Of a DNA stretch of 64,000 bases, positions 864-32,156 are shown piece after piece (the first letter of the stretch is position 1; each line of letters starts with the position of its first letter). Where the stretch lies: assembly GCA_973895155.1 (NCBI GenBank), contig OZ316895.1:11368858-11432857 (forward strand), given 5' to 3'. This stretch comes from Marsupella aquatica. Lineage: Eukaryota > Plantae > Marchantiophyta. The notes beneath the pieces are model-generated. The model did no database searches and had not been told where the DNA came from. It worked only from the letters and a program-made list of their open reading frames with translations. The translations under genes and the position numbers were made by a program.

Positions 864-3095
864 AGCGAAATCTCATGGACTCTGTAGCGGAGATTGAGGT
901 GGTGGGTGGGGTTGGATAATGCGACTTATTACCCAGGACCGACGGTCGACGAGGAGAGGAGGCAATTCTGACTGAGAAAAGAAGTGGAGGGGGAAGAAGA
1001 GACAGCGAGAGAGAGATCGTGGAGTTGCGGAGTTTCTCGAGAGAGCGTTTTTCAACGCTCTGCTTATCCTCTGGCCGTCAGATCGGGTCGAGGTGGCGAA
1101 ATCGAGTGCGGGATCTGGTGCGTGAATTATTGGGCGGGGGGGGGGGCGAGGGAGTATTATGGGCCCAGGCAATAATAATAACTAGTACTACCCCGACTAC
1201 CTCTTCTTTGAATGTGAATAGCTAAGAGTAGTATACAAGTATTATGAAAATACATTCTCTATTCATATTCTTTGAAGGTTACTGAAATGATAAAAAAACT
1301 CATCATTTTAATAGTCATATATAATATACCATTCTCCTTTCTGTGCACATTAGTCTTTTTGTATGCACATCCATCTTCTATGCACTATGTTGTGGTGGGA
1401 CCATAGTGCCATATTTTTAGAATGTAAATACTTGAAAATCATCACAAAATTTTTGCATGTATCGGTTGACATACATCATAGTCATGTCAACAATTTTTCC
1501 CATGCACATGATGGCCACGGGGATGGCCATAGAGTTGCGGTCTAGAGGCTTCATGCTAGACCTAGGCTCTTAAAAGTAGACCTCAGTTGGCTTTTTTATA
1601 GTAAGATGTGGGTCCAGCTCAATTCTTTTGGGTGGATGAGATTGCCAAAGTGCATTCAATAGAGTGTTGTCAAAGTGCATTCAAAGGAGTGTTCTATGTA
1701 GGAGGAGTGTTCTATGTAGGCTAGATCAGATTGCCAAAGTGCATTGAAAGGAGTGTTATAAGTTTGTATTTTTAAATTCATGTGGATAAAATTTAATTTT
1801 GTAGAATTGACATCTAAAGCTCATCTACAATAATAAGAGGATGTGACAAGAATAATGAACCACTAGTTGGAAATATCTATGATATTATCTTGGGCAACTT
1901 AGTTTGAAGATTCAATTTGTTAATATATGCTAATAAAACAAAATTCTCATCATTGTCCTAATGATCATGGCAAGTGGAAATAAAGACAAAAACCATAAGT
2001 GTAGAATCATCATAGATGATCATAGGTGATCATAGGTGTTGGAGAGAGAGGTCATATAGACCAACTTTCATGGGAGTATGAGCACTTAGTTTCGTGCATG
2101 ATTTGGATTATGTAATCAATTGTATTTTATGATGTTATTTTGTCTTATTATTGAACGTAGCTTTCTCCATTATGTAGAGATTATAACTCTAATAAACTGA
2201 ACAAAATAGGTTGGATAGGAGATTTAGTGATGTTGTGTTCAATGTTTAGGGACTACTTTGTTGTGCTTGTGCAGGTTGATTGGAGTATGAACTCATGACT
2301 CTTTTGGTGTGCCTAGGGAGATCATAGTGGGAGTTTATAGCATACTTCAAGCTAGGTGGGAGTATGGTTTATAGGAGACATTCAAGTTTGGAGGCTGACA
2401 TCAAGTGGCAGAGTATTTTTTGTATGGCTCTCATCATGTGACCCAGGTAAGTTTGTAGAATTGCATGTTTTGTTTAATAATTACAGTTTGTATGGATTTT
2501 ATTAGTTGTGAAGTGGCCCAATGTCCTTTCAATTCAATGGTTGAGCCCCCGTCTTCACCCTTTCTTGAGATGAACATTTTACTCTTGGTTGCTAGACAAA
2601 CTTGGGAGAATTTACAAACTATTTGACAATCAACAGCAAGCTCAACTCTCCCGCCAACTCTTTGACAACACTTGAAATACAGGTTTGCCTTCTTTTTCTT
2701 CTCTCCTTATGGTCAAGAAGTGTGATTGCTAATATATTTTGTGATAAACCTATATCAAACATTTGTTCAGTTCCAAGATTACCTTAATCTATTGATTTCT
2801 GATCATTATTTCTAGATAAAAGAAATTGAAAAGCCCTAATTTATAACATTCAGATCTAAACTTAGTGCAAGTGTTTGACCTGAAAATTGGAGTTTCATAT
2901 TTTACTTGTAAATACTTTTTCAAATCTTGACAACTGGAAAAATGTAAATATTGATACTCTATCTAAGGAACTTTGCTACAAAGAAAGGCATAAGAAGACT
3001 TTAGATTGAGAGTTATTTCCTTTTGAAATTCATTTTCCAAAAGAAATAGCAAAAGCAAGACAACATTTGATACTCCTCTTAACATAACATGTCTT

Positions 3096-3439
3096 TGTTG
3101 AGCATAGATGACATTCGCAACGGCAAGCCCATGAACCATCCAACGCACAATAGTCGACACAGAGCGATACGTGGTTCACCTCCACATGAGGCTACGTCCA
3201 CGGGAACACACAAGAGCTTTACTGCACTCTAGGCCGACCGGCCATACCAAGCATCCATAGCACAAGCTCTCCCTATCTCTCAACTAGCTCCGTAACAATG
3301 AGCCTAAGTTCCACCAGGGTCTGGCATCAGCCCTGGCTATATGCACAACAGCACTACCGCTAACCTTAGCTAGGTCCTAACCCGAGTTAGCCTAACTGTG
3401 GTTAGCACAAGAGTCACAAGACTAGAGCAATATCTAACA
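3096..3439 (-). repeat. Copia 3' LTR
   Basis: TGTTGAGCATAG...TATCTAACA; adjoins the PPT (AACTCCCCCTT on +, 3440-3450). Confidence 0.95.
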
Positions 3440-3646
3440 AACTCCCCCTTGACTCTTGTCTTGGGGACTGGACTAAATGCTACCATATGGAATCCTCAGC
3501 GGGAAGTTCTAGACAATCACCAAACCAGGTCTCCCCCTAAAAACCACAAGGGTTAACTAAGGGTTAACTAGAACTAAGCCGTAGCCTAACAGGAATGAGT
3601 AATCCATATACAAATAGTCACACATTGCTAAATAACTCTACTTGCA

Positions 3647-5474
3647 CTACAACTGCAAAACCTGCAAAGTAGCACGGTGTCTTGAGAAACTCTCCAAAGG
3701 AATCACTTTGGTAAAGGCATCAGCGGGATTGAGCTTTCCATCAATCTTGACTAGCTCAAAAGTTTTATCAGACACTGCTTGCCTGATAAAATGGTACCTG
3801 ATATCAATGTGCTTCACCCTACTATCCATCACCTGGTTAGCAGCCAAGTGAAGAGCACTCTGACTATCACAGTTTAGAGTCATTTTTCCATGCTCTAAGC
3901 CCATCTCCGCGATCAACTTATCCAACCAAATTGCTTCCTTTGCAGCTTCTGCTGCTGCAACATACTCTGCTTCTGTAGTAGACTGAGATATGCACTTTTG
4001 CAAGGTAGATTTCCAACTGATACATCCTCCTCCAAGAGTGTATAAAAACCCAGTTGTAGATCTCCTTGTATCCAGACAGCCTCCATAGTCAGAATCTACA
4101 TAGCCAACTAACGTTCTATTTGATCTGTTATCAAATAGTAATCCATAGTCCTGTGTTCCCTTCACATACCTGAGAATCCATTTCACAGCTTCCCAATGTA
4201 CCTTCCCTGGATTTGACATGAATCTGCTAACCTTGCCCATCGCTAGGGCCAAGTCAGACCTAGTACAAGTCATCAAATACATCAGACTGCCTACTACCTT
4301 CTCATAAGGAATCTTAGCCATCAGACCTTTCTCCACAGCATTCGTAGGAGAGAAAGCCGATGATAACTTGAAATGTGAAGCTAAAGGAATACTCACCGGC
4401 TTACAGTTCTCCATGTTGAATCGTGCAAGTACTTTCCTCGCATACTGGCCTTGACTCAAGCACAACTGTCCAGTCTCAGAGTTCCTAAAAATCTCCATCC
4501 CTAAGATCCTCTTGGCCTTACCAAGATCCTTCATCCTGAATTTAGCGCTCAATTTTGCCCTGAGACTGTCAACCTTAGATTGATCTTTAGCCACAATTAG
4601 CATGTCATCCACATAGATCACCAGAATGATGAAACCAAATACATCATTCTTGACTGATTTTGTATACACACAAGGATCATACACCATCCTTGTAAAACCT
4701 TGAGCAAACATGAAATCATCAAACCGCTTGTTCCACTGTCTGGGAGACTGCTTCAATCCATACAAGGATTTGAGCAATCTGCAAACTAAGTTCTCTTGGC
4801 CCTTCTTCATAAAGCCTAGTGGCTGTCTCATGAAGATCGTCTCTTCCAAGTTGTCATAGAGAAAATCAGTAACAACATCCATCTAATCCATCACCAGATT
4901 AAAAAACACAACAAGCTGACACAAGATCCGAATTGTGGAATACTTAGCCACCTGTGAAAAGACCTCATTGTAATCCACTCCTTTCTCCTGAGTAAACCCC
5001 TTGGCAACAAGCCTTGCCTTGTAGATCTTATCTCCACCCTCTGAAGGATTGTCCTTCAACTTGTAAATCCACTTGCTGTCCACCACTTGTTGACCTCTTG
5101 GAAGCTCCACCAGCTCCCATGTCTTGTTGTCACTCAAAGATTGCAACTCCCTCTGCATTGCTGCATTCCACTCATGCTTCTGCTCTGAAGCATAAGCCTC
5201 ACTATACGAAGAAGGCTCTCCTTCTTCCAAGATCAAAGCCATATCATCTTCATCAGGTGCAATGTCAATATCATCTAGCTTAGACGAGTCTGCCCATTGA
5301 CCATACCTGGTAGGAGCTCTAGTAGAACGACTGGAAGTTCTTCTAGTAGATGACTCAGGCTGATCTGCTGCTGCTGCTGGCTGAATTTGAGGTACCCTAG
5401 CAACAATCTGCTCCTCTTGTTCCATCAAAGGAACCAGCTCCAAGCTCGGAGCTTCTCCATCTCTCCTGTCATGA
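3647..5474 (-). pseudogene. Copia pol 3' part: RT and RNase H (one in-frame TAG at 4883-4885)
   Basis: KARLVAKGFTQ, LLKSLYGLKQSPRQW, YVDDML, GYVDSDYGG, STTEAEY, KHIDIRYHFIR motifs. Confidence 0.95.
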
Positions 5475-5478
5475 ACTG

Positions 5479-5805
5479 TGTCACACCATTCTAGGTAGTG
5501 TTAGAGTGTATCGTACTATCTAGATCCGTATGTTTGGTATGTGTGCTATATGAGCCGATAAGGTTCCGTTAGGTTTGTGTGAGAGGGTACTTCTCACTTG
5601 TGAGGCATTGAAAGGTCATCTTTCAATGTTGAGCCTTGGAGAGAGAGGAGCTTGAGTGGCTATGGTGGCTGTGAGCTCCGCTTGTGTAACGTGGATTTCT
5701 TGAGTAGTGCAAGGTGCGTTGGCTTGACATACGTGTGTGATCGGATCAGTGCGGGATCGATGGGGTATTGTTGACCAGGATCGTTGTGCCGATTGTATTG
5801 AGATT
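5479..5805 (+). repeat. Terminal repeat A1 (327 bp)
   Basis: Direct repeat of 15945-16271 with 5 mismatches, all C/T or G/A transitions. Confidence 0.95.
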
Positions 5806-5817
5806 ATATTGAAAGAT
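5806..5817 (+). promoter_or_regulatory. Putative self-priming primer-binding site (Tf1-like)
   Basis: ATATTGAAAGAT immediately after A1 pairs over 12 nt (one G:U) with ATCTTTCAATGT at 5618-5629 inside A1; no TGG-tRNA PBS at this position. Confidence 0.65.
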
Positions 5818-6698
5818 CGCTCGAACTCTACTGCTGTACGGACAGAGCTTCGATTGGAGGTTGTGTATTGGCGACGGTTTGTGGTAGTTTGAATCGATCG
5901 TGTTGTGTTGAAGAGGATTCGTGGTAGTTCAAATCTTATTGTTGATATTGTGTTGGAAGATCTATTCTGCCAGGGAGCTATTGTTTAAGCTTTCGATAGT
6001 TCCCGAAGGGCTTTGAGATGTGTTGATCGAAGGGCTGATCGACAACAGAGGGATCTATGCCCGTGTTTGTAGATCTGTTGGACAGGGTCCGGACGGTGTA
6101 GTCGACCTTGCTTCGATCTGTCCCGAGTTGCGATCTGTGACAGTAGCGATCGGATTTGATAAGGCCGGCTATGGCGCTGCTATTTTGATGAAGGAAATGG
6201 AGATCAAACTTTGAATGCTGCGTTTTGCGTCACTACTGTTTCCATTCGATCATGTGTATGTTGCCGTCGCCAAAGCTGCGATTTTGCGTGAAGGGAACCG
6301 GCAGCCACGAAGTCGATGTTTTGTGAGGGAAATTGAGTCTGGATGTTGTGAGATTGAACTACTGTGTTTCCATCGGACTGCTACTGCGATCTGTAATTCC
6401 GTGAAGGGAACCGAGAGGCAGAAGCTGGATGTTGCTGAATCTGATTGTGTGATCTGTGAAGGGAAACCGAACCTGAATGTTGCCGAATCCGAAACTCGAT
6501 CCGGCGTAGCGAAGCGTTGCGGGCGTGAAGGGCTCACTCTTTGGCTCATCTCGGCGATTTGAGGCTTCGAGGCAACTCGTGGTTACTCGGGACGAGGGGC
6601 GTGAGGGCGGAGCGGGCCAGCAAGCTTGCTGGTACGTGAGGAGTAGTTGCAAGTGCTGCCATTTTGGAGTGGCAAATTTGGTGCATAATGACAAGTGA

Positions 6699-6757
6699 GA
6701 GGTCACCCATCCCAAAGCTATTCCTCCTCTCATGCGCTTAACTAGCAAGTTTCTATG
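6699..6757 (-). promoter_or_regulatory. 5S rRNA-derived internal control region (A box/IE/C box) in the retroelement leader
   Basis: Minus strand reads AGTTAAGCG-N22-GGATGGGTGACCTC, the same two blocks and 22-nt spacing as plant 5S rRNA; not a full 5S gene. Confidence 0.7.
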
Positions 6758-7400
6758 TGGTGCATTGTACATGCTTCCTTCCACATTTGATGTCCAAGGA
6801 ATGAGGCCCTAGGGGTTTTATGCACTTTTGAATTCATCTAGATACTCTGTTTTAGCTAGTTTGCGATGGATTCTTGAATATTTGACGCAGGATTCTTGAG
6901 GCCTATTATGAAGGCCCTACATTGAACTATATGCATATTATTTACATGTATTTCTTATTGATTGGTGTGGAGAGTTGTGGTAAATCCTCTTCTTGTTGTT
7001 GGATCCTCTCCACACATGCTTCCTGTTTATGCGCCATGTTAGTTTGGCGTGGGCGCTTGATTCTATAGGAGTGATCCGGGTTTGCAACCGGACATTCTAG
7101 TTGTGCTACGTATTTCTCTCCTGGTGATGTTGGAGTGATGCCCAACACACCATGGTGAGTGCTTGTGTTGTTGACAGGGACAGATTGCCCTTAGGGTTAG
7201 CCTATAGATTAGGTTAGGTTGGTCACCACAGATTCTTCTGGCGCTGCTGGGTTACCCGATGGACGACGGACCAGTTTCACTCGGAGTGGGGTGCAGTTTC
7301 GGCCAGCAACAGTGGTAGCAGTCAGCAACACAGCTTCAGACAGCGATTCTGACGAGGACTCTATGAGCAGTTCTCCTCGTCATCAGGTGATTGCACCTTT

Positions 7401-8903
7401 GTGTGGGATATGGAAGAGATGTACAGGGCTACAAAGGGCCCACGACGATACTCTGGTGCAGTTGGCACGATTGATCTGGATGACTTCATCCAGGAGTTTG
7501 ATACGTGGTGCGATATGCAGACATTGCGTAACGCCACGTTGTTTACCCCTTTCATGGCATGGAAGGGATTATTTCAGCATTTGGAGGGGCCACCCATGGA
7601 TGACTACCATGAGTTTTGGAAGGCTCATTTGGTTGAGATTGAGGCATGGAGGCAGCATTGGTCGCCTAATTACGTGTCCATCACCTATGGCACTAGTGCG
7701 GCTGCCCAACCCATTGCCACAGCTGCTGCTGCTTCTTCTAGCAGCACTAGCCAGAGTGGCACACCATCCACCAGCAGCACTCCAGCAGCATCCACCGCTA
7801 CTTCTGCCGGTGTGATTGTGACAGGAACTGGAGTTGCGCCAGCATTTAACCCTGTGGTGGAATTCTTTGAGGTACTGAAGCAAAACTATCAGGGTGTGAG
7901 AACTGATAAGTTGAAGGGTCTCCAGGAGTTCTAGCGCAAGACTGGAGAGAGTCTACGTGAGGCATACACTCGTATGCGCAGATTGATCACTGTCACCAAG
8001 GAAGTGACAGAGGCTCAGGCAGTCCAATTTTGGTATGCAATTTTGGATAGAGAATTGCGACGCAGAGTGAGAGATGTTACTCTGCTTAGGGATGCAGATC
8101 CCACATTAGCAGTTGTTTTTACCCTTTCTGAGCGTATTGAGCTCAATATGGTGAATGAGAAGGTGGTGACTTCCGGATTTGCCAAGGAAGCACCAAAGGC
8201 TGCATCTACATCTACACCACATCCTACTGCACGGAAGAGCCAGAGGGAGAAGCCTACTGCACGAGAGTCTACCAGCCAGAGACCTGTGCCCTCTTATGCT
8301 GGACAGCAGTCAGGATGTTGGACCTATGGTGGGGATCATGCATAGAGATATTGCCCAGATCATAGAGGATCAGGAGGAGCAACAGCACCTGATCAGCGAC
8401 AGTGTGATCATTGTGGAGCTCCTGGACACACCAAGGATAGGTGTTTCTCACTCCATCCTGAGTTACAGAGAGGAGGATCCCATACACATGATCAAGGAAG
8501 AGGAGGAGGAGGTAGAGGTGGTGGACGTGGTCGTGGCATGCCACATGCAGGGAGACAGGGAGGTGACGCTGCCCCTGCTGTAACCATAGATCCAAAGGAT
8601 GCTAAGATTGCTCAATTGGAGCAACAGCTAGCTGCCATGGCTAGTTCCTAGGTGAGACCTACTTCTGGTGATGGGGCATCTACATCCTATGGACCTTCCA
8701 CATCCCATGGTCCTTCCACATCTTATGGAGCTGATGGAGATCTTGCCACCATGGGATTCATGTGTGGCACTGCACATATTGATGCATCAGCAGCTTTGAC
8801 ACGTGGGACAGCCAAAGCTCTTGAGCCCCGAGGAGCAGTAGTGGAGCTAGATCCATAGAGGGGGGATGCACGTCGGCAGATAAAGCTTCCTCAGTCTTTT
8901 ACA
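7401..8903 (+). pseudogene. Gag of the gypsy-type element (in-frame TAG stops)
   Basis: F*RKTGESLREAYTRMRRL capsid-like motif; zinc knuckles CWTYGGDHA*RYC (degenerate) and CDHCGAPGHTKDRC; RGG-rich stretch; same frame as pol. Confidence 0.85.
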
Positions 8904-9912
8904 TTGTCAGAGATAGTTCAGACTGCCTCTATGAACCCGGTTCGGACAAACCCTGGCGTGGATAAGTTGGCAGAATCAGGTAGTGATGCAGCAGGGATGA
9001 CAGGTACCCTGCTGGGGGCGGCTACTACCATGGTACGCACCCCATTATTTTCAGCGACAGAGATGCTGAACTTGGGAGTTGGTCCTGCAGAAGTGTTCAG
9101 ATTGGCAGCTACACTCTGTGAGGACACTCCACTGGTTGCTTCCCATGCAGAAGCAACTTGCAGTGTTGAAGCAGTGAAGACCATGCCATCTACTACTAGT
9201 GAGACATGGCATGCAACAGCAACGAGGTTGGTGGATTTACCAGCACGCCCTGCATTTGAGAGGACTAGGTTTAAACCTAGTGTTGTGTCATTGGATAATC
9301 GGAATGGTATCTTCCGATTAGTTGGGCCTTCTAGAGCAGTATACCAGCCAGAGAGAGTGTTACTAGATACTGGTGCTCAGCCCTTGATGTTGGGGAAGTC
9401 TGCCATACGTGGATTGGGATTGCGTCCAGAGGATTTGGAGGATTGTCCTTTTCCCATTCAGACTTCATTGGGGGGACCTACACCTACACAGCATATCACC
9501 AGAAGACCACTTGATTTGAGAATTCAGGAAGGTCATACCACAGATAGCTCACAGATACAGGCGCGAGCTATTCTGACTAAGGTAGAGTCATATGATGTGT
9601 TGGTGGGATGTACAGTGCTCTACCCCATGGGATTTATTCTTGATTTTTGGGAGGAATCAATGTCATATAGACCTGATTGGCAGTCAAGAGATGCTCGATT
9701 GAGCAAATTGCCAGTGAGATTTAGTGGACCTATGGGAGGCCCTAAATCCACACCATTGTCTTTGGCAGCATTCAGTGGTGTAATTGCTGGACCAGATGAT
9801 TTGATTGAGGGTAATGCGCATGCAGCCAATGTTCCACCATTGGAGGAGTCTCATGAGGAGCACATCATGCAAGGATTACCTGTTGGCAGTGTTGTGCCAC
9901 CAGTGTGGGGCA
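8904..9912 (+). pseudogene. Aspartic protease region of gypsy-type pol
   Basis: VLLDTGAQPLML (DTG at 9366-9374) and YDVLVG motif. Confidence 0.88.
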
Positions 9913-11192
9913 CCCTGGGCCCTCACTCTTACTATATTAAGTGAACCCCCCTGAGAACAGACACCCCCCGTGTACCCCTTCTTAATATTTTTGTTCACAA
10001 AAAAAAATCCCTTGTTAATGTAAAAACATTATTTTTTCCTATAAAAATTTATCCTTTTGTAAATTATAACAGAGTTTTTCAAGGAATTAAAAAAACCCTT
10101 GAATTTCTAAAAATTGTAAATATCATACTGAAATATAAAAGATTCTATTTTTCATAGGGGAATATTATGTTACGCTGATGTTCACGGTACATATTTTATA
10201 TAGATCATAACAAAACTAGTACTAAAGATTTATAGTTCTTCCTAGAGTATATGACTATAACTCAGGCAACTTGTAGACCTCATAGAGATAAACTGAACTA
10301 GTACAAATGCATTATTATGCTATGCTATATCCTTGGAGGAATAATTGCATATATACTACTTATGTAAACTTCAATTGCTAAATTATTCTATCTTGACTAA
10401 GAATGGTATGACATCAACCATTAACACCAAATGATAAGTAGAGTTTTTGGCAACTTCTTTCATGCAACCTGACACATCAAACCACACATTAATCATATAT
10501 ATTCTAGACACAAAGTACTAATAATACAAAAAATGACTACTGAAAATTGTGGAGAGTAATACCATCAAATCTCCTTTGGCTGAAATTGTTACTTAGACAT
10601 GGTGGGTAATTTTCCTGCCATCTCTGCAATCAAACAACTGTGAGCACCGGGTACCCCCCCCCAACCCAATGATCAAGGGAGTACACCACCCCACACACCT
10701 CATACCTGGCCATTTGATTCAAGGGAATTCAAAAGTAATCTTGTTTGTCTATGTGGGATTGATTCATGGGTCCCCATCAATCCCAGAACCCCAAACGAGT
10801 TGGGCCCCAAAATCCTGGCCCAACATTTACTTAACTCCCAACTTAACACATGCGGGTAAACAAGTCTACCATGCAAACCCATGAAACCAAACTTGCCTTA
10901 AGAGGATAAATAATTAAATGTCTGATTTACTATATGGACATGTGTGCCAATGAAGTGATGACATGTGTGCCAACCATATAGTGACACGTGTCCTTGGCAT
11001 TTTAGGTACCCTTGCATAAGATTAATGTGACATGTATTTGATAAGAGCCTTATTACTAATATTGTGATGAATGTATATACATGGATGTTGCATACTTTAA
11101 AAAATATTATAAAAATTAGTTTGCATTACATTAAAAATACCCTTGCGTTGTTCGCACGTCCTCCCTGCATTAGTAACGCTAAGGGCCCAGGG
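9913..11192. mobile_element. Non-autonomous TIR DNA element inserted in gypsy pol
   Basis: Perfect 11-bp TIR CCCTGGGCCCT/AGGGCCCAGGG (imperfect to 22 bp); 8-bp TSD GTGGGGCA at 9905-9912 and 11193-11200; AT-rich non-coding interior; removal rejoins PR and MTase in frame. Confidence 0.88.
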
Positions 11193-11211
11193 GTGGGGCA
11201 CTGCATAGGCC

Positions 11212-12456
11212 TTGCCACAGGCAGCAGCACGATTGGTACATGATGCATGGCGTCATGCTTTTACACCACAGTCAGGAGCAGAGCAGTCTCTTGCAGATGG
11301 ACCTATGACTCTTTCACCATTGGATACCACTCCTATTGCTTGGCAATATCCACCAGAGGGTATTTGTTTGTTGGATCTTTTTGGTGGGATTAGCACTGGA
11401 TTGGCTGCTGTTCTTCAGGCAGGAATTCCTGTGTGTCGTTATTTGTATGTGGAGATAGATGAGACAGCACGGAGGGTCTCATTGCGACATGTGGCTATGT
11501 TGGTGGATAGATATCCACAGTTGCTACCAGTGGATGTTGTTCGTGGTTATCAGCATGCACTACCTGTTGATATTTCATTGCTGGGGGCGGATCATCTGCA
11601 TCGTGTTGGCCCCATTGATTTGGTGATTGCTGGTTGGCCATGTCAGGGCCAATCTAGAGCTGGCGTTGGGCATGGACTTCATGATCCACGCTCTGCATTG
11701 TTTTGGGAGATGTTACGGGTGCTACGTCATCTCCAGCTACATCAGACACAGTCTCCAGCATACATTTTGGAGAATGTGCCATTGTTAGGTGATGATCGTA
11801 GTCGGATTGTTACCAGTGTTCACCAGGTGAGGTCTTGGATTGGACCTGCTATGTTATTGGATGCTGCACGTGTGGGTTCTCGTGCACATCGTCCACGCTT
11901 GTGGTGGACTAATTTGATCCCATGTGAGGTGCTGAAGCGTGCATTTGACAGCATTCCACGCTCACCAGCCTTAGTGGTGGATGATATTTTGGATTCAGGG
12001 CGTCGTGCACAGGGTGTGACCCAACCTGATAGACCTCCATTGGCAATGGTCAATGCAGTTGGGTGCCCACGTTGTGCATTACCCACTCTTGTAAGCCACT
12101 CTGCTTCATATGCATTCAGAGCAGGTGGCCCTGGACTTGTATGGGACACAGCTCTCCAGCAGTTAGTGGAGCCTACTGCTGATGAGAGAGAGCGTGCTAT
12201 GGGATTTTTGACAGGCACCACTGCAGTTGCCTCTGTGTCAGAGGGTTTGCGGCGCCAGGTTCTTGGTCAAGCAATGGATTTGAATTGTTTGACTTGGATT
12301 ATCAGCTTGGGAGTAGCTGAACAGTTGCGGATGCGCTCTGCTGGAATTACTGATTATCCCTTGGTGAGCTTGCGGTCCACTGAAACAGTATTGACCACAG
12401 CCGGGGGCGAGCAAACAGTCCATGGACCTATGGCAGGATTGGCCAAGGCTGGATAG
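11212..12456 (+). CDS. C5 cytosine DNA methyltransferase domain (DNMT3/DRM-like motifs) within the gypsy polyprotein
   Basis: Motif I LDLFGGIS, II VEIDE, IV AGWPCQG (catalytic PC), VI ILENV, VIII HRPRLWWTN, IX ERERAMGF, X RRQVLGQAMD; no stop inside the domain. Confidence 0.92.
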   Translation: MPQAAARLVHDAWRHAFTPQSGAEQSLADGPMTLSPLDTTPIAWQYPPEGICLLDLFGGISTGLAAVLQAGIPVCRYLYVEIDETARRVSLRHVAMLVDRYPQLLPVDVVRGYQHALPVDISLLGADHLHRVGPIDLVIAGWPCQGQSRAGVGHGLHDPRSALFWEMLRVLRHLQLHQTQSPAYILENVPLLGDDRSRIVTSVHQVRSWIGPAMLLDAARVGSRAHRPRLWWTNLIPCEVLKRAFDSIPRSPALVVDDILDSGRRAQGVTQPDRPPLAMVNAVGCPRCALPTLVSHSASYAFRAGGPGLVWDTALQQLVEPTADERERAMGFLTGTTAVASVSEGLRRQVLGQAMDLNCLTWIISLGVAEQLRMRSAGITDYPLVSLRSTETVLTTAGGEQTVHGPMAGLAKAG

Positions 12457-12543
12457 ATTGTTGAGCAGGAAGGGACTGCTCAATCTACTGCTAAATAGCA
12501 ATCATCGGCTATCTCTTCTACCCTACAAAGAGATATTAGGGAT

Positions 12544-14281
12544 TTGGTGGAGAGTTGGGAACCACAGCTTGGCCCTAAGTTAACAGGGGAGGAGAGACGT
12601 CGCATGCATCGATTCCTGAAGAGTTATTGGAATTGTTTTGCATTCAGCATGAAGGATTTGGGGACATTGAAGGGCCCTGGTATTCAGATTGAATTGGCTA
12701 GTGATGCGCCAATCTTTCGTAGACCATACCGTTATAGTGACATGGAGAGAGCTCTGATTCAAAGTAGAACTCAAGATTTGTTGAAGGTTGGATTGGTGGA
12801 GATTTCATATGGGGAGTATGCATCTGCCACAGTGATGCCAGCCAAGAAGGATGTGCATGGCAATTACACAGATAGGCGCATGTGTGGTGATTACAGACCT
12901 ATTAATCGCCAGACAAAATCTGATCGATATGCCATGCCCACACCTGAGGAGATCTTTGATGTTGTGGGGCATGCAAAGGTTTACAGTTCATTGGATTTGA
13001 GGGCAGGATACCATCAGCTTCCAATTAGACATGCTGACAGGTCCAAGACAACATTATGGGGGATTGATTCTTATGGCAAAGATCGTTTGTATCAATGGTT
13101 ATTCTTACCATTTGGGTTGAAGAATGCACCAGCTGAGTTCCAGAGAGTCATGGATCGAATCCTTGCAGGTTTGGATTTTGTCAGATGTTATATTGATGAT
13201 ATTTTGGTCTATTCTTCTACTGTGGAAGAACATCAGCAGCACTTGCAGATTGTGTTGGAGAGATTGAGAGCACATGGGTTGAAGCTCCATCCTGGCAAGT
13301 GTAAGTTCTTCCAAGACGAGATTGAGTATTTGGGCCACACTATATACCATATACCCAGGGGGATTGGGTGTACAACAGACTAAAGTGGAGGCCATTACAC
13401 AGATTCCTCATCCTACTGATGTGAGCAGAGTTCGTGCATTCTTGGGATTGGCGAGCTACTATAGGAGGTATGTTAAAGGATTTAGCCAGCCTGCTAAACC
13501 TTTAACCATACTCACTAAGTTGGATCAGGAATGGACTTGGGGTGATGACCAAGAGCATGCCTTTCAGGAGTTGAAGCAAAGGTTGGCATCATCCCCTATT
13601 TTGAGAAGACCCATTTCAGGCAGACCATTTCAACTACACACTGATTGGAGTGGAGTAGGACTTGGAGCAGTGCTGACTCAAAAGGATGATGAGGGGAATG
13701 AGTTTGTTGTGGGTTATGCCAGTAGATCAAACAATGCAGCAGAGGCTAAATATAGCTCTTATGAGGGAGAGTGTTTGGCAGCAGTGTGGGCTGTTGCACA
13801 CTTTCGTTGCTACTTGTTTGGTAACCCCTTTACCTTGATCATTGATCATCAGCCTCTTAAGTGGTTAATGGAGTCTGACAAGCTTACAGGGAAGCTTGCA
13901 CGATGGGCATTGTTGTTACAGGAGTATGATTTCCAGGTGGTGCATAGGCCTGGAAAAGTGAACTTGGATGCAGATGGATTAAGCCGCAATCCATGTACCA
14001 GTCAGCAAGATGAGACTGGAGCTAGATGGCATGATGAGTCAGATAAGGAGATGGTGCCAGGATGGCATGCATCTGCCTTTCTTTGTTGGGTGCCAGCATA
14101 CAGTGGATCTGTGGACTCTACCTCATTGGATGGAGTGGATGATGAGTCTTCAGATGTGGATGTTGGTGAGGTAACTTCTCGACAACAAGATATTCACAAT
14201 GATGTGAGAGTGTTGGAATATTTGCGCAGTGGTTCTATTGTTGGCAGTGTTGATGCCAAGGAACGTGACAGGGTTCTATAG
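12544..14281 (+). pseudogene. Gypsy-type RT and RNase H (frameshift from a 7-bp ATATACC duplication at 13342-13355)
   Basis: RMCGDYRPIN, SLDLRAGYHQ, LPFGLKNAP, YIDDIL; RNase H LHTDWSGVGLGAVL, EGECLA, IDHQPL, ADGLSR. Confidence 0.95.
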
Positions 14282-14317
14282 AGAGCCAAGAGATTTCGAT
14301 GGGAGGGAAACCATCTT

Positions 14318-15289
14318 TTGAGAGTACTGCATGATGGTAGGATGTTGGTGGTACCAAAACCATCACAACGAGTACATTTGGTGCGACATGCGCACGAGGA
14401 GTTGGGTCACTTTGGTGTGAAGCGCACTTACAGCTTGCTGCAGACACAGTATTGGTGGCGTGGTATGCACACTCATGTCCAGCAGTTGATAGCTAAGTGT
14501 GTGGTATGTGATAGAGTGAGAGCATCATTTAATGCTCCCACTTCCCAGTTGCACCCGTTGCCGATCATGGGTTTGGGATATCGTTGGAGTTTGGATTTTG
14601 CTGGTCCATTACCTCTTACCCAACGTCATAATCGGTATGTTTTGGTCATGGTGGAGCACTTCTCCAAGTGGATTGAGCTAGTGGCGTTGCCAGATAAAGC
14701 CAGTGGAGGAGTTGCTACTACATTTTTGGATCGTGTACTCAGTCATTTTGGAGCACCAGCTGAGGTGTTGACTGATCAGGGAACTGAGTTCCGTGGAGAG
14801 TTTGAGAGTTTGTGTGAACAAGCTCTGATTGATCATCGTACTACCTCTCGTGATCATCCTGAGGCAGATGGATTGGCTGAGAGAGTTGTGCAAACTGTGA
14901 AGAGAGGATTGCGTAAGTATGGCTTGCAGGTTGGTCATCTGGGAGATTGGGATCTCCAGCTACCTTGGTTAGCTATGGGCTACCGTTTCAGTCGGCAAGC
15001 ATCACTTGCATCCTTCTCACCTTACTTTTTGCTCTATGGTAGAGAGCCAGATTTGCCAGCAGCTATTCGTCGTGATGTTGCATCAGTTGTGAACTTGGAT
15101 GATCCTGATGTTTGGGTCAAGGTGTGTTCAGAGAGAGCACGGGTATTTCAACGAGTGATGCCCATGGCTTTTGACAACCTTGCCATTGCCCAACATCGTG
15201 ATACTTTGAGGTATGCCACTATTCGTGGAGGAGGTTACCGTGCAAGCATTCGACAATTTCATCCTGGTGATTATGTTTATTTGCAGTAG
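14318..15289 (+). pseudogene. DDE integrase of the gypsy-type element
   Basis: HHCC finger (HEELGH...CVVC), WSLDFAGP, LTDQGTEF, DGLAERVVQ; bounded by in-frame TAG stops. Confidence 0.95.
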
Positions 15290-15310
15290 ACAGCACCCAC
15301 CACACTTGAT

Positions 15311-15631
15311 GTGACCGCAGGCCGGACAATCTTACGTGTGCGTGAAGTGTTGCCTTCTGGTGTCCTGATGTTGGAGGGACGCGATGGTATGGTTTGGAAG
15401 GATCATGTGCGCAACTGTGCACCATGTCACCTTCCCAACATTGATGGTACAGTAGATCCAAGCTTGGCACATGTTCGTGCTGACTTGAAATGTATGTTGT
15501 GTGGATCTGCTCAGGGAGCAGCTACTATGTTGATTTGTGATCAGTGTTCTAGAGGATGGCACATGTCATGTTTGACACCACCATTGCAGGTGATTCCTAG
15601 TGGATCATGGTTGTGTCCTCAGTGTCGGTGA
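15311..15631 (+). pseudogene. Integrase C-terminal module plus PHD finger
   Basis: Same frame as the integrase; C4HC3 pattern CMLC...LICDQCSRGWHMSCLTPPL...GSWLCPQC at 15491-15628. Confidence 0.9.
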
Positions 15632-15795
15632 AGCCGACTAGTTATCATTTGTGTTCTCTTGGCAGATATGGATTGCAGGTAGGTGATCGATGGGGCTCAC
15701 TTGCACCCGGCCTCCTGGTCTTCACACCTAAAAAGGTGTATATCAACCTTGTAGAACTCATGGCTAGCTAGAGTTAGGGGACCTTACTCCCAGCT

Positions 15796-15802
15796 AGGGG
15801 GG
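15796..15802 (+). promoter_or_regulatory. Polypurine tract preceding repeat B1
   Basis: AGGGGGG one base upstream of the B1 start (15804). Confidence 0.6.
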
Positions 15803-15803
15803 C

Positions 15804-16410
15804 GATTGTGGGTTTTGGACATGTGTGGACATGAGTTCCACTTGTATTCCATTCTCTTGTGTTTGTGATGTGGCAGTGTGACTATGTCTGGATGTATGTG
15901 ACAAGCGATGTATGTTATGTAGCGATGTGTATGCGCACGACAGCTGTCACACCATTCTAGGTAGTGTTAGAGTGTATCGTACTATCTAGATCCGTATGTT
16001 TGGTATGTGTGCTATATGAGCCGATAAGGTTCCGTCAGGTTTGTGTGAGAGGGTACTTCTCACTTGTGAGGCATTGAAAGGTCATCTTTCAATGTTGAGC
16101 CTTGGAGAGAGAGGAGCTTGAGTGGCTATGGTGGCTGTGAGCTCCGCTTGTGTAACGTGGATTCCTTGAGTAGTGCAAGGTGCGTTGGCTTGACATACGT
16201 GTGTGATCGGATCGGTGCGGGATCGATGGGGTATTGTTGACCGGGATCGTTGTGTCGATTGTATTGAGATTGATTGTGGGTTTTGGACATGTGTGGACAT
16301 GAGTTCCACTTGTATTCCATTCTCTTGTGTTTGTGATGTGGCAGTGTGACTATGTCTGGATGTATGTGACAAGCGATGTATGTTGTGTAGCGATGTGTAT
16401 GCGCACGACA
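15804..16410 (+). repeat. 3' split-repeat block B1 (15804-15942) - GC - A2 (15945-16271) - B2 (16272-16410)
   Basis: B1 and B2 are 139 bp with 1 mismatch; A2 matches A1; the B1/A2 junction is the palindrome GACAGCTGTC. Confidence 0.95.
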
Positions 16411-16414
16411 ACTG

Positions 16415-17797
16415 CATCATGACTAATCTCCCCCTCAACCCGGTCCGGGATGAGAGATTTCCCCTTGTCAGTATGGGAGTCCTGAGAACTCTCCCCCTCT
16501 GATGATCTGGATTCATTAAATGACACATCTCTACTGACAATTAGTTTACAGGTTATTGGATCCCATAACCTATAACCCTTCACACCTTTCTGATAGCCAA
16601 GGAAAATGCACTTCTTTGACTTGGACTCCAGCTTGGATCGAAGCTGGGAAGGTGTAAGCACATAAGCATCACATCAAAAAATCCTCAGATGTGAGTAATC
16701 TGCTGGACGCCCGTACCTCATTTCAAATGGCGTCTTGAATCCAATAGAATTGGATGGAGAAAAATTTACCAAATAAGCTGCAGTGTTGACAGCTTCAGCC
16801 AAAACTCATGTGGTAAGCATGATTGACTCAACATACTCCTCGAGCGGTCCAATAGTGTTCGGTTGAGTCTCTCAGAAACACCATTCTGCTGAGGAGTATA
16901 GCTTGTTGTGAGATGGCGGGTAATCCCCTGCTCCTTACAATACGTTCCAAATTCACCAGAACTATATTCACCGCCGTTATCCGATCGAAGATATCTCACC
17001 TTATTACCAGTCTGATTTTCAACTTGGGTTTTCCACTCCTTTAAAGTGGCAAAAACATCAGACTTATTGTGTAGAAAGTATATCCACACATACCTTGAGT
17101 AATCGTCAATGAACGTGACATAGTATAACCGTCCAGAATGTGAGGGAGTAGGGGCGGGACCCCACACATCACTATGTACATACTCAAGTACCTCCTTGCT
17201 GGTATGAGTTCCAACTCCGAAGGGTTTCCTGTGCTGCTTCCCTAGCACACAGTGCTCACAAAATTCCAACTTACAAGATTGCAAATTAGAAAGTAATCCT
17301 TTCTTCTGAAGAATAACCAAACCTTTTTCACTCATGTGGCCCAAATGGAAGTGCCACAGCCGGGTCGTCTCCACATGAGATAAGGTTACATTGGCTTCAT
17401 CACAGACTACACTGCCCTCGAAAACGTATAGATTGCAATGTCTCTTTCCCTTCAATACAACTTTAGTACCAGTTGAAACCTGAAGGACACCATTAGCAGA
17501 ACTCCACTGATGGCCATTTGCCTCTAAAACTCCAAGTGAAATGAGATTTTTCATCATGCTGGGAATATGTCTCACATTCCTCAATGTTCTCACAGCACCA
17601 TCAAACATCTGAAATCTTACAGATCCAAGTCCAACAACTTGACATGGGATTCCATTTCCCATCAACACTAACCTGTTGGAAACCGTGTAAGAACTGAAAC
17701 AATCTCTTCTAGAGCAAATGTGAAAAGTACATGCACTATCTAGAATCTAGTCATCACTACCTGGATTTGACACTACGTTGAGAGCATAACCTTGACA
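16415..17797 (-). pseudogene. Copia protease, GAG-pre-integrase and integrase (frameshifted)
   Basis: *ILDSACTFH, LWHFHLGHMS, CEHC, VHSDVWGP, LRSDNGGEY, PQQNGVSERLNRTL, KCIFLGY...KGYRLWDP. Confidence 0.93.
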
Positions 17798-18849
17798 TCA
17801 CAATATGTCATCATCATTGAGTAAATCTACCTCATGCGAGCTCGATGCTGCGTTAGCAGAGGCAGTAGGGACCTTTACTCGACAATCCCTTTTCATGTGG
17901 CCTGGCTTGCCACAATTCCAACATGCAAGAGGCTTCCTCTCTTGCGATTTTCCTCTGGATTTAGATCTCCCTCGTGATGTAGATCTAAACCTGTTCTGCC
18001 CATTCGTGCGCTGCGTTGCTCTTCCCCTGTTCACATTGAGCACAGTGCCAGAAGAAGATGCTGTCTGTGATTGACCCAGCTTTTTTTGAGCATCATCACA
18101 CAGTAAAGAGCTTACCACCTCATTATACGAAATGGACTTCAAATCTCTGTACAAGAGCACCTGTTTCAAACCCTGATATGACGGCGGTAAGGAGCTTAGT
18201 AGAAGCAAGGCCTTATCCTCATCTTCAACTCCTTTTCCCAGGTTTGACAGATCAACCGCTAGACTGTCAAACTCATCTAGGTGATCCTGCATCTTGCTCC
18301 CTTCCTTGAGCTTGAGGTTCATCAAGAGAGACTTCTTGTACAGCCGGTCTGACGCATCTTCCCGGTAGTACTTCTCTCTTAGAGCCTTGAACAGTGACGC
18401 GCAATCCGCATAATCATCCAGCTGCTTGATGATGTGCGGCTTGAGAGCATCATTGCATTGACAGCAATCACCTGCTCCTGTCTCCATTGCCTCACTGAAA
18501 TCTCCTCCTCTCCATCATACTGCTCTCGCGATGAAAGCAGATGAGCTAAGCCCATGGCCTGTAGAACACCCTTCACTTGCTTCTCCCAAAGCAAGTAATC
18601 AGTACGACCATCGTACTTCTCCACCTCAAACTTCACTCCTCCAAATCTAGCCATCTCCCTCTTCTTCCCTACTACCGACAGCTCTGGTAGTAACACAGCT
18701 TCCTCCACTGCACGCCGCACCGGTGATCGTATCGGTGTTATAAGTTCCTCCTCAAACGGTAGCAGCTCCTCCTCAGACTTTCCGTCTGACCGTCGCGATC
18801 CTGAAGCTCCACCGCCGCCAATTCTTCCAGTATCCTCCGAGTCACTCAT
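17798..18849 (-). pseudogene. Copia gag (frameshifted)
   Basis: KFEVEKYDGRTDYLLW, DEDKALLLLSSLPPSY, zinc knuckle CWNCGKPGHMKRDC. Confidence 0.92.
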
Positions 18850-20323
18850 ATGAAATAATCACAAAAAAATGTCTTTTTTTGAAACTTCTCATAAAACTCA
18901 AAACTCAACTCCGCCGCGTAGCCCATGAAGCTAGGAGTCCAATACTAAAATCCGAAATCAAAATCAAAATTTGACGGAAAAGTTATTCAAATTTCGGTTG
19001 GGGTGGGTAAAACCTTGGGAAACTCCCCCGTTTTGACCACCTCAGAGAATAACCAAAATACCAAGTACAACCTGTCGTCGGAATCGTGATGTGATCGGTG
19101 CGCCGCGTTGCTAACTCCAGTGGCAACGTCCTCACCAAAAAAGAACCAAAAAAGTTACCGTGCGGCGGACAAAATCTTTGTGTGATGGCCAAAAAACAGC
19201 TCTTTGTTTTTCGGGAATATTCTCGCACAGTCCAACAGGGCTCACAGGGGGCCGTTCCCCCTGTCGGAGCGGTTAAAATGGAGGGTCACAGGGCCTGGGA
19301 TGAGGCACAACCAATGAGGAGGAGGAGAGAAAAAAAATTCAGAAAAACATACTCTAAAGGGGTCTTAAAGCCCCTGGCAAAGGCGCGCGTATTCGCGGCC
19401 AGAATCGCGTATAAACAACAGAAAACGTGAAAAAACGGGTTCAAAGGGGTCAAAACGCGCGTATTTTTGCATTTTTGGGCCGTATTTGGGCCCAAAAAAG
19501 CACGTTTTTGCGCTTAAAGGGGTGTGGGAGGCCGGTGTGCGCGCCGGGGCGTATGGCGAACCTGGTTTGTCGGGTATTGGGGCCGTATTGGGGCAAAAAA
19601 TGCCCTAAACTAACCTTAAAAATGTGCCCAAAATGATACAAAGGCCGTGTTACAAACCTTAGCCGCCTCCGCTTTGGTTTCCAATGAGAAAAGTGATGAC
19701 CGCCGACATGAAAATGTTTTCGAATTGCACCGGCACGTCAGAAGCTCCACCAGAGAAAGAACTTCTGTTGCATCGCCTTCACTCCGCGTCAAGTGCCAAT
19801 CCCAGACTCAAAATGACCGTCTCGCCACGAACTCTCCGTTGAGCCTCAGCACTTTGCGTTTCTTCCTCCGAGTCAAGCGTCACGATGAGTAATCCAGTTC
19901 AGGGAAAAACAAGCACCATAGCTTGTCAAAAAACCAGAACGCCTCCTTCACTCGTCACGACGCACTCGTTTCGCAAACGTCAGCAAACTAGATACCAAAA
20001 CGACCAGCACGCTCCAACCTTCAACTTGAACTATCACATGCGACGCCCCGCACACCGCACAGCTCACACCGTTGAAGAAACGATCTCTGGTTTCTCCCCC
20101 GAAATACCGTCGAACACGAATAAACCCTGAACGACGCAAACTTCAATTCCTCCGCACCACGAATACCGATCAGCGAGCTCTAACCACCGTTAGAATGCCC
20201 TCTCACTAACCTATCCGCTCAGCCACATACAATCGAGTTTCATGCGACGAAACTCTGAATGTACCATCGACAATGAACGCTGGAAAAACCTGTCACGAAA
20301 AAACCTTGTCACCTCCTAGGCAT

Positions 20324-20335
20324 GCTCTGATACCA
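20324..20335 (-). promoter_or_regulatory. Copia PBS, initiator tRNA-Met
   Basis: Minus strand TGGTATCAGAGC, 2 nt inside the 5' LTR. Confidence 0.93.
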
Positions 20336-20337
20336 CT

Positions 20338-20681
20338 TGTTGAGCATAGACGACATTCGCAACGGCAAGCCCATGAACCATCCAACGCACAATAGTTGAC
20401 ACAGAGAGATACGTGGTTCACCTCCACATGAGGCTACGTCCACGGGAACACACAAGAGCTTTACTGCACTCTAGGCCGACCGGCCATACCAAGCATCCAC
20501 AGCACAAGCTCTCCCTATCTCTCAACTAGCTCCGTAACAATGAGCCTAAGTTCCACCAGGGTCTGGCATCAGCCCTGGCTATATGCACAACAACACTACC
20601 GCTAACCTTAGCTAGGTCCTAACCCGAGTTAGCCTAACTGTGGTTAGCACAAGAGTCACAAGACTAGAGCAATATCTAACA
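20338..20681 (-). repeat. Copia 5' LTR
   Basis: Near-identical to 3096-3439; followed by TSD GTCTT. Confidence 0.95.
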
Positions 20682-22048: not shown

Positions 22049-22431
22049 ATGTCTAGCTGTTTTCATGCCAGTGCAGCAATCGCTTCAAAGGCTACAACGG
22101 AGAACTGCTAGCCCCGAATCGCCGAGACCAAGCATCAGTAGCTCAGGATCTCGATTTAGGTGGGTAAGCTGGAATGATTCCATCTCGGCATTTCCTTCCG
22201 TTCTCCCTTTCTGTTGCCGAATTAGATTTACGGGGTCAATCCCTTCATGGGTCTTCTCTGTTTCTCTGCTAGCGAGACTGGAGTGTAAACTCGAGTAGCT
22301 TACGAAAGAGGTCGGAGTATCTGATTCGTTTGTCAAAAGTGTCGTGTCATGTGTCTCCAATGCAGCTACTCACTGACGTTTTCAAATCCAGTTTTGCCTG
22401 TTGAAGGATTTGAGAAGGTAGCATCGGTGCC

Positions 22432-23121
22432 ATGGCGGAGATTACGCTATTCGCCAGCAGGTATTCTCCATTTGCACAACGAGCGCAAATAGCATTGAGG
22501 GAGAAGCAAATCCCATTCGAGCTCATCGACGTAGACTTCAAGAGCAAACCACAGGCCCTACTGGACGCCAATCCCATCCATAAGAAAGTCCCGACCATCG
22601 TCCACAAAGGCAAGCCGGTGGCGGAATCCCTCGTCATCCTGGAATACTTGGAAGATGCATTTCCGGAGCAGGTTCCATTGTTGCCGAAGGATGCCTACGA
22701 GAAATCTAAGGTCAGATTCTGGACTGACTACGTCCACCAGAGCTTCGTCAAAATCACGGCTGGCTTGAGCGCCCAGGCGGGAACTCCAGAGAAGCTTGCT
22801 TCAGTTGAAGCATCGATGACTTTGTTGAAGACATTAGATTCAGCCATGACCAGTTTCTCTGCAGATGGTCCTTTCTTTACTGGAGACAAATTCAGATATC
22901 TCGATGTGGTCCTGGCGCCGCTCTGCAGTGCTCTAGTAGTCATAAAAGGACTGGGAGGCGGTACGATGCCAGGCCCCGATGAGTTGCCTCGGTTCTACAA
23001 GTGGCTGGAGGTGGTTACGGCGCATCCAAGTGTGAGCTCTTCCCTGCCTTCAGAAGAAGAAACCTGGGAGTTCCTGAAGGCTAGGTTCTCACAAATGACC
23101 ATCAGCAAACCCATTTCTTAG
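22432..23121 (+). CDS. Tau-class glutathione S-transferase (copy 1, intronless CDS)
   Basis: SPFAQRAQIALREK, NPIHKKVPTIVH, ESLVILEYLED, RFWTDYV, GPFFTG..F.YLDVVL; 229 aa. Confidence 0.92.
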   Translation: MAEITLFASRYSPFAQRAQIALREKQIPFELIDVDFKSKPQALLDANPIHKKVPTIVHKGKPVAESLVILEYLEDAFPEQVPLLPKDAYEKSKVRFWTDYVHQSFVKITAGLSAQAGTPEKLASVEASMTLLKTLDSAMTSFSADGPFFTGDKFRYLDVVLAPLCSALVVIKGLGGGTMPGPDELPRFYKWLEVVTAHPSVSSSLPSEEETWEFLKARFSQMTISKPIS

Positions 23122-31481: not shown

Positions 31482-32156
31482 TGTCTTAACCGATACCTAA
31501 TCCTCAAAGAATTTCGGTCACCTTGAGTGATGAAGAGGACAGCAACTTGAGGGAATAGCTACCGGTTGCACCTGCAACACACATACCACAACAAATGTAC
31601 AACACGGTGAGATGGGCATGCACTGCCAAAGCACTTTGCCATAAACGAGTTTCCATTATCAACTCACTAGGACTTGCGGGCACCACTTATCGCGCAGCAT
31701 TAGACATAACTGAAGACTACTCCGATACTCCAAACAACCGTAACTGAAAACATTGCAAAAGACAACGCCAATACGACTTCGCCCAATAGAAGACATTGAA
31801 AAAACAACGACCTGGAAAGTGAACTCTAGCATGACATCAATCTACCGGGCAACTACTGAACTCTCTGTTTGCTACCTGGGCATTTGTCCAACGTAGAGCT
31901 AGGCAGGACTCTGGTGAGGTCTCGCGTCGTTGATTGCTGCTCTGGCGTTCGACCAATGAAGGGTTACTTATACACTCAGGATCCCATGAATCGAAGCATG
32001 ACTGACGAGATATGCGGTTTGTAGCCCGTTTGTAGATCTGCTGTGGGACCACTAGTCCACTGACACTCAATTATGCCTCAGAGGAGAGCTGCATCGGAAG
32101 GTTCTCCATCTTGAAAAGTCCAGTCACCAAAGTGGATTTTAATGGGGAGGGGTGAT

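Follow-up and report, generated by a model that had tools for sequence, protein, structure and literature searches.

Organization of the locus

Within the window, by which we mean the whole 64,000-nt stretch of DNA that was analyzed, lies an element that runs on the forward strand from a TG at 5479 to a CA at 16410, and is flanked by a 4-bp target-site duplication (5475-5478 on the left, 16411-16414 on the right). Its repeats follow the order A1-coding region-B1-A2-B2. Repeat A1 (5479-5805), which starts with TG, is 98.5% identical to repeat A2 (15945-16271) over 327 nt, whilst repeat B1 (15807-15942), which starts with TG and ends with CA, is 99.3% identical to repeat B2 (16275-16410) over 136 nt, and the CA end of B2 is the right end of the element. 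We infer that B1 corresponds to the start of the U3 region of a long terminal repeat (LTR), and A1 to the end of U3 followed by R and U5. A candidate self-priming site (5808-5817) follows A1, in which 10 nt are complementary to positions 140-149 of repeat A. Directly 5′ of B1 is a polypurine tract (15796-15803), and the same motif is found in loci L004, L009, L013, L014, L018, L021, and L025. The B1|A2 junction forms a 10-bp palindrome (15939-15948), consisting of CA, two nucleotides and TG, with a CG adjoining it, which may serve as the attachment site of the integrase.

The coding region, likewise on the forward strand, opens with a Gag region (7259-8858) that contains zinc-knuckle-like motifs and resembles the N-terminus of the Marchantia protein P0001, with no match in Pfam. 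It is followed by an aspartic protease with an LLDTG motif (9270-9752), for which the match to Pfam Asp_protease_2 is weak and under the cut-off (E = 0.004). Next come a DNMT3-like C5 cytosine methyltransferase domain (11335-12330), a reverse transcriptase (RT) with RNase H (12538-13987), an integrase with an H2C2 zinc finger and an rve core (14282-15400; Pfam), and a C-terminal PHD finger (15479-15631; Pfam PHD, E = 8e-12). An earlier note on this DNA had placed the methyltransferase between the protease and RT, and that is where it lies. The order of protease, RT, RNase H, and DDE integrase, together with the TG...CA ends, the target duplication, and the polypurine tract, is that of a Ty3/Gypsy element. 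A further conserved stretch (8780-9270), located between the zinc knuckles and the protease, is kept in Marchantia and, as judged by eye, in Mesostigma proteins; it had no Pfam match, and its best score in the ESM Atlas was 0.77, which is under the useful level.

The copy in the window is a decayed, dead element. Besides a stop codon that is shared by the family, it carries eight premature TAG stops, including those in the Gag region (7932, 8343, 8649, and 8856), directly upstream of the methyltransferase domain (11206), and near the integrase (14279 and 15287). Seven extra nucleotides near 13342 shift the frame of RT in this copy, and a non-coding insertion with 11-bp terminal inverted repeats (9913-11192) is flanked by an 8-bp target duplication (9905-9912 and 11193-11200), on the basis of which we take it to be hAT-like. 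The claim that the methyltransferase is in frame with the protease once 9913-11192 is removed holds as far as the shared frame is concerned, but 1288 nt have to be discounted, namely the 1280-nt insertion plus one 8-bp duplicate. The empty-site joint (9904 to 11193) was found in contigs of three of the four public runs, and protease and methyltransferase share a frame in all 14 related loci tested. A conserved stop between these two domains was considered and rejected, as stops in that region are scattered and are absent from L018 and L021.

The Gypsy element is itself nested in another transposon. This is a Ty1/copia element on the minus strand (3095-20680), interrupted between its integrase and RT genes, with LTRs that are 98.6% identical over 345 nt.

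The methyltransferase domain

A stop-free frame (11209-12453) holds motifs I, II, IV, VI, VIII, IX, and X in the canonical order that the earlier note had read from the sequence. They lie between 11374 and 12279, and start at 11374 (I), 11446 (II), 11632 (IV, PC), 11767 (VI, ENV), 11881 (VIII), 12184 (IX), and 12262 (X). Motifs I-X are intact and unpermuted, with the catalytic PC, ENV, and RxR of a C5 methyltransferase. The profile search that the note had proposed, with Pfam DNA_methylase, gave a score of 42.1 bits vs. a cut-off of 22. Among sequences in the PDB, the best match was DNMT3A (phmmer, E = 3.6e-12), with DNMT3B and DNMT3C also among the best; HaeIII (E = 1.5e-4) and entry 4onj (E = 6.5e-4) were far behind. 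We also built an AlphaFold2 model of the domain on 27 sequences (pLDDT 89.5), which Foldseek aligned with the DNMT3A catalytic domain over the whole length (E = 7e-19, TM 0.71), and the top rows of that search were all DNMT3. Judged by its sequence and predicted fold, the domain is a DNMT3-like C5 cytosine methyltransferase (hereafter DNMT) that has more in common with DNMT3 than with DRM or bacterial enzymes.

In alignments whose cluster members are redundant, the catalytic Cys is kept in 160 of the 166 proteins aligned at that column and the Glu of ENV in 170 of 174, and the motif II column is E or D in 161 of 165 proteins. Pairwise dN/dS ratios, with saturated dS rows ignored, were 0.16-0.18 for the DNMT of the window compared with three relatives and 0.11-0.14 among L018, L019, and L021, where the L018-L019 pair is unsaturated (pS 0.21) and most other between-lineage dS values are near saturation. 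The same between-lineage pairs gave 0.11-0.17 for protease and 0.05-0.12 for RT. Decayed copies of one moss-like family had ratios of 0.40-0.67 (DNMT) and 0.32-0.68 (RT). The between-lineage ratios indicate that the DNMT is under purifying selection. Checks on sister copies and on neutral evolution had also been suggested beforehand, and both came out in favor of a maintained enzyme: the domain is present in the copies, its dN/dS is 0.11-0.18 between lineages, and the catalytic residues are kept. That the domain belongs to the element, and did not come along as a passenger gene, is borne out by the sister copies, by bryophyte and algal relatives, by the conserved catalytic residues, and by the low dN/dS.

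The ratio of observed to expected CG is 0.33-0.39 in the element and 0.23-0.45 in the neighboring copia element. Depletion of CG or CHG was considered as a mark of self-methylation and proved uninformative. Since the CG depletion falls within the copia range, there is no signature of self-methylation, and base composition backs none of the competing roles for the DNMT. Searches of viral contigs returned only distant methyltransferases (24-44% identity), mostly as partial-domain matches.

Distribution and phylogeny of the family

Protein searches returned 52 longer relatives and 127 of similar length, with named matches from Marchantia polymorpha, Calypogeia fissa, Riccia sorocarpa, four Sphagnum species, Closterium, and Mesostigma; a search with RT added Coleochaete and Haematococcus. 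In the contigs of the four runs, protease, DNMT, and RT are all fully covered, and each of the three domains has many variant contigs; depth in these contigs does not equate to copy number. Capture of the domain at a single locus was rejected, given its presence in sister copies and in bryophyte and algal relatives. The M. polymorpha cluster P0001 has 18 members. Four of the 15 listed Marchantia cluster members (P0336, P0337, P0338, and P0341) bear V-chromosome gene names.

In a quick, midpoint-rooted RT tree of 166 rows, the DNMT-associated elements form one clade (111 rows, SH-aLRT 98). That clade is separate from a 26-row clade of angiosperm Gypsy elements, several of which have chromodomains, in a tree that was built without host DNMT3, Klebsormidium, or REXdb references and without labelled Tcn1, Phygy, Selgy, or Tat references. 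The copy in the window shares a group of 14 rows (support 99) with Marchantia, Calypogeia, and the moss-like L004. Elements with the DNMT after RNase H make up a separate 45-row subclade (support 98), which includes the Haematococcus RTs. For the DNMT itself, the earlier note had called for a phylogeny, and our midpoint-rooted FastTree of 79 rows provides part of it: the element enzymes form a 59-row clade (support 99) apart from 14 prokaryote-type (metagenome or phage) enzymes, in a tree that lacks host DNMT3, Klebsormidium, and REXdb references.

The subgroups of the two trees broadly match, the exception being L043, which is placed differently in each. The algal-type relatives (L031-L044; P0033-P0046) have the DNMT between RNase H and integrase in a single ORF and form their own clade in both trees, again except for L043, which sits on a long branch. 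This clade structure fits, and suggests, one capture of the DNMT followed by a later move of the domain within the polyprotein. Three proteins of the element clade (P0079, P0291, and P0052) are labelled in public records as bacterial (Obscuribacterales, Synechococcales, and Spirochaetia); they likely derive from eukaryotic contigs in metagenome bins.

A conserved stop codon between DNMT and RT

Two in-frame TAG codons, at 12454 and 12496, separate DNMT from RT in the window. At 12454, a different letter makes up 99.7-100% of contig depth in three runs, and the stop is private to the window copy and is accepted as decay. For 12496-12504, the same three covering runs have no variant row at a threshold of 8%, although a missing row is not proof. 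Decay was rejected as an explanation of the 12496 stop, which is family-wide. It lies in the sequence UAG-CAA-UCA with an A at positions -1 and -2, a putative read-through site that matches the tobamovirus-type (Type I) consensus, UAG-CAR-YYA (PMC3159437), and is conserved and in frame. The DNMT had been described as in frame with RT in one gag-pol polyprotein. The two do share a frame, but not an ORF, as the stops at 12454 and 12496 intervene, and a single polyprotein open into RT is not supported as described: the conserved stop splits Gag-protease-DNMT from RT-RNase H-integrase-PHD.

We screened 45 loci for this junction and counted 28. The other 17 comprise L009 (internal deletion), L012, L020, L039, and L041 (no RT side), L031-L038, L040, L042, and L044 (DNMT located past RNase H or immediately ahead of integrase), and L045 (weak match). 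A stop followed by CAR occurs 15-22 codons upstream of RT in 25 of the 28 related loci, with linkers that look unalignable; the exceptions are L024, where another stop takes the place of CAR, L043, which lacks a stop, and L008, which was unscorable. The strict UAG-CAR-YYA is found in the window, L002, L018, L019, and L021, and the linkers of these four loci have no evident likeness to that of the window. The remaining 21 of the 25 loci, all from one redundant moss-like family, have CAA-CCC instead, and six of the 25, within this CAA-CCC family, use TAA as the stop.

The plan is unbroken in L018, in which a 1369-codon Gag-protease-DNMT frame is followed by UAG-CAG-UUA and a 1047-codon RT-RNase H-integrase-PHD frame. 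Nine Marchantia proteins terminate 73-75 residues past the DNMT. In some gene models from Marchantia and Sphagnum, by contrast, the stop is bypassed by splicing. From its conservation and context, the family stop is likely to be read through. DNMT and RT are in one ORF in the relatives P0334 (2811 residues), P0189, and P0185. Because deeper-branching relatives such as P0334 have a single ORF, the stop looks like a trait of the 35-row RT subclade (support 85) that contains the window.

Split repeats, putative circle junction, and priming

Ordinary LTRs, with two full identical copies at the ends, were rejected for this element, as its repeats are split (A...B-A-B), which equals a circular permutation of two B+A LTRs. 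L025 has the same repeat layout with its own 4-bp duplication, and L016 also has a 4-bp duplication. The palindrome at B1|A2 has the sequence of the element's right end, followed by two bases and then by its left end; it is identical in L004, L021, and L025 and has one change in L018. The A2|B2 join, on the other hand, differs from copy to copy against a constant B|A junction, a pattern that would follow if A2|B2 were the repaired junction of a circle. Taken together, the split repeats, TG...CA ends, 4-bp duplication, and palindrome point to a DDE integrase that cuts circular cDNA inside one LTR. There is a precedent for cleavage of a palindromic circle junction in the integrase of foamy virus (PMC1180852).

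The mirror permutation, A-B-A-coding-B, was not found at any of eight left ends, although a symmetric cut of the circle would predict some. A look for split repeats in the algal-type contigs L031-L044 was also negative, although these contigs may be collapsed. In L009 (9747-9859) and L013 (6945-7057), the polypurine tract and repeat B lead directly into flanking sequence, with no A2-B2; these ends could stem from a one-LTR circle that was inserted, or from B1 having recombined with B2.

No tRNA-type primer site is present directly after A1. The sequence there is instead complementary to the middle of repeat A. The complementary stretch measures 10 nt in the window and 16 nt in L018, whilst L025, L023, and L020 have 17 nt each, and these sequences all differ. 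None of 200 shuffles of the window sequence reached 10 nt. The complementarity beat 200 shuffles (p at most 0.005) in seven of nine copies, eight of the nine belonging to one family; it was non-significant in the other two and differently positioned in a third. Self-priming is therefore likely to replace tRNA priming, as judged from this complementarity.

Comparison with known elements

The closest described system is KnitGypsy-Dnmt3 of Klebsormidium nitens, in which Pol contains a Dnmt3 domain, the repeats are DIRS-like, and Ka/Ks is below 0.2 (PMC5890265). Both elements combine an unpermuted, intronless Dnmt3-like domain within a Gypsy element, DIRS-like split repeats, and purifying selection on the DNMT. 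Unlike KnitGypsy-Dnmt3, where the domain lies in the Pol ORF and which is known from one alga, the element described here is found in land plants and encodes its DNMT together with Gag and protease in an ORF1 that ends at a conserved stop. DNMT and RT are not in the same ORF here; they share a frame, and would form one polyprotein if the stop were read through. The passages on KnitGypsy-Dnmt3 in PMC5890265 make no mention of a PHD finger, stop, target duplication, junction palindrome, or self-priming, and Marchantia is not mentioned in the main text. Our protein matches included no named Klebsormidium sequence, whilst relatives from Coleochaete, Closterium, and Mesostigma were found. The element probably works like KnitGypsy-Dnmt3 and is probably its land-plant kin.

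The A-coding-B-A-B repeats and the methyltransferase domain are also shared with SymbioDIRS-Dnmt3 and other split-repeat DIRS elements (PMC5890265), and CG methylation has been demonstrated for the dinoflagellate SymbioDIRS-Dnmt3 enzyme (PMC5890265). DIRS elements use a tyrosine recombinase, however, whereas here the integrase is of the DDE type, the ends are TG...CA, and the target duplication measures 4 bp; an rve integrase is present and the frames scanned gave no match to a recombinase. The Tcn1 and Tf1-Sushi chromoviruses are Ty3/Gypsy elements of mosses and club-mosses that are predicted to self-prime (PMC6317226), which resembles the candidate self-priming seen here, but they have a chromodomain and not a PHD finger, ordinary LTRs, and no DNMT. 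Neither "PHD" nor "methyltransferase" appears in the text of that survey of plant LTR elements. With a PHD finger, no chromodomain, and an RT outside the angiosperm clade, the element does not belong with the plant chromoviruses (Tcn1, Tekay, Reina, CRM, and Galadriel).

Its in-frame stop is like the UAG-CAR-YYA of tobamoviruses and the stop-separated ORFs of SIRE1, MuLV, and Tca2 (PMC3159437; PMC2194720). In contrast to these systems, the putative read-through stop here follows protease and DNMT and precedes RT. EpiLTRs likewise combine a methyltransferase with a chromatin reader in an LTR element, although the DNMT family and the reader are different (DAM, DNMT4-like, and chromodomain; bioRxiv 10.64898/2026.05.21.726589). 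The same preprint treats the streptophyte Gypsy-DNMT3 as a separate acquisition that had been described earlier. A 2025 paper labels streptophyte DNMT3 elements as "LTR Copia" (PMC12344493); the account in PMC5890265 and the domain order found here are those of Gypsy. The literature that we searched describes no land-plant Gypsy-DNMT3, stop, junction, or self-priming of this kind, though subscription journals, repeat databases, figures, or bioRxiv supplements may do so. Three papers on Marchantia or liverworts and one on land-plant epigenetics contained no such element in the passages searched.

Possible roles of the DNMT

We consider it fairly probable that the window holds a dead copy of a Ty3/Gypsy-DNMT3 element whose DNMT, encoded upstream of a stop that ribosomes likely pass, would enter particles at capsid level and likely methylates the element's own cDNA, itself likely inserted from a circle. 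Under this reading, most ribosomes would halt after the DNMT and a minority would continue into RT-RNase H-integrase-PHD, after which the protease would free the DNMT within the particle. Self-primed reverse transcription would yield an ordinary cDNA with two B+A LTRs, the ends of which would be joined into a circle. The integrase would then cut the palindrome inside the upstream LTR, so that the circle is inserted as A-coding-B-A-B, and the PHD finger may steer insertion toward chromatin lacking H3K4 methylation. Before or during the integration stage, the DNMT would methylate the cDNA, probably at CG, and the new copy would thus arrive pre-marked.

Packaged methylation of cDNA has already been proposed (PMC5890265). 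The position of the stop makes that idea more plausible: because the conserved stop separates Gag-protease-DNMT from the downstream enzymes, Gag-protease-DNMT would be an abundant product, and a DNMT on the Gag side would be made and packaged far above RT and integrase. Such a placement predicts a need for the enzyme in bulk inside the particle, which favors a role on cDNA, and DNMT at capsid level would suit this role better than one at the target site. As for the PHD finger, its best PDB matches include CHD4, DPF3, KMT2D, KDM5B, PHF21A, and UHRF1. We take CHD4, KDM5 PHD1, PHF21A, UHRF1, and AIRE to be the readers of unmodified H3K4 among its best matches, and with several such readers, targeting of silent chromatin is plausible.

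A first alternative, which we regard as unlikely, is that the DNMT controls which attachment palindrome the integrase may cut, much like the pairing of a restriction enzyme with its modification enzyme. As the B|A palindrome stays intact in each integrated copy, methylation of it would block cutting of host chromosomes or of the second LTR of the circle. The palindrome and its adjacent CG are conserved among lineages whose DNMTs are ~51% identical, and just one of the two possible circle permutations is seen at the eight left ends; moreover, split-repeat DIRS elements also carry methyltransferases (PMC5890265). Yet the CG may be kept merely as part of the end that integrase recognizes, host methyltransferases could do the same job, and the algal-type L031-L044, possibly because they are collapsed, yielded no split repeats. 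A wider form of the idea, to which we give comparably little weight, is that of an LTR clade spanning the green lineage, in which a DDE integrase cuts the LTR palindrome of circular cDNA and capsid-level DNMT3 is the cognate modification switch, active in land plants.

Somewhat more doubtful is a role of the DNMT on host chromatin, either where the element inserts or, in trans, at other copies, by which it would seed local heterochromatin. The PHD finger of the integrase would then pair with the DNMT in place of the ADD reader of animal DNMT3. The presumed readers of unmodified H3K4 among the PHD matches, the nesting of the element within a copia element, and the location of the DNMT directly before integrase in algal-type relatives are all in keeping with it. 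In the element described here, however, RT-RNase H and a stop stand between DNMT and integrase, so most of the DNMT would not be tied to the PHD finger.

We think it improbable that splicing joins the two ORFs, as it does in Ogre elements, or that ORF2 is translated separately, with the CAR context being incidental. Gene models P0003, P0008, P0010, and P0032 do continue from DNMT into RT, but they are predictions, and they drop the start of RT. Furthermore, a single in-frame stop followed, with no spacer, by CAR recurs in lineages without evident linker similarity, whereas the Ogre spacer averages 274 bp. Least probable is that the domain persists because of a non-catalytic role (binding of nucleic acid in the particle) or one directed at RNA (its methylation). 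The lack of activity of the Klebsormidium enzyme in yeast (PMC5890265) and the lack of extra CG depletion might point to this, but the Cys, Glu, and Arg of the catalytic site hardly vary, nor do the SAM-binding motifs, and the closest structures are DNA-methylating DNMT3 enzymes.

The function of a retrotransposon-borne DNMT3 was left open in 2018 (PMC5890265), because the sole Gypsy example was algal and its enzyme gave no methylation in yeast, a result that the authors call inconclusive. The question becomes testable in Marchantia polymorpha, as it is a genetic model with methylation mutants, and elements of this kind are multi-copy in it. The split repeats and target duplication imply integration from circles, which is unexpected for Gypsy elements, and standard LTR finders would miss or truncate elements of this type. 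Their DNMT ORFs can also inflate the counts of host DNMT genes in bryophyte annotations.

Neighboring sequence

Elsewhere in the window is a cluster of glutathione S-transferase genes (22414-23121, 24738-25529, and 30768-31496), with a further GST-like stretch, identified by repeat match, near 35164-35759. A 548-codon open frame on the minus strand (38462-40108) encodes an exostosin GT47 domain. Both the GST and the exostosin genes would suit a land plant, and the nearest named relatives of the element are bryophytes. Degenerate tandem repeats, whose units measure about 17-19 and 35 nt, occupy 48171-49362, and another RT-bearing element, which has a weak RVT_1 match and is probably of the non-LTR type, lies at 53961-56333.
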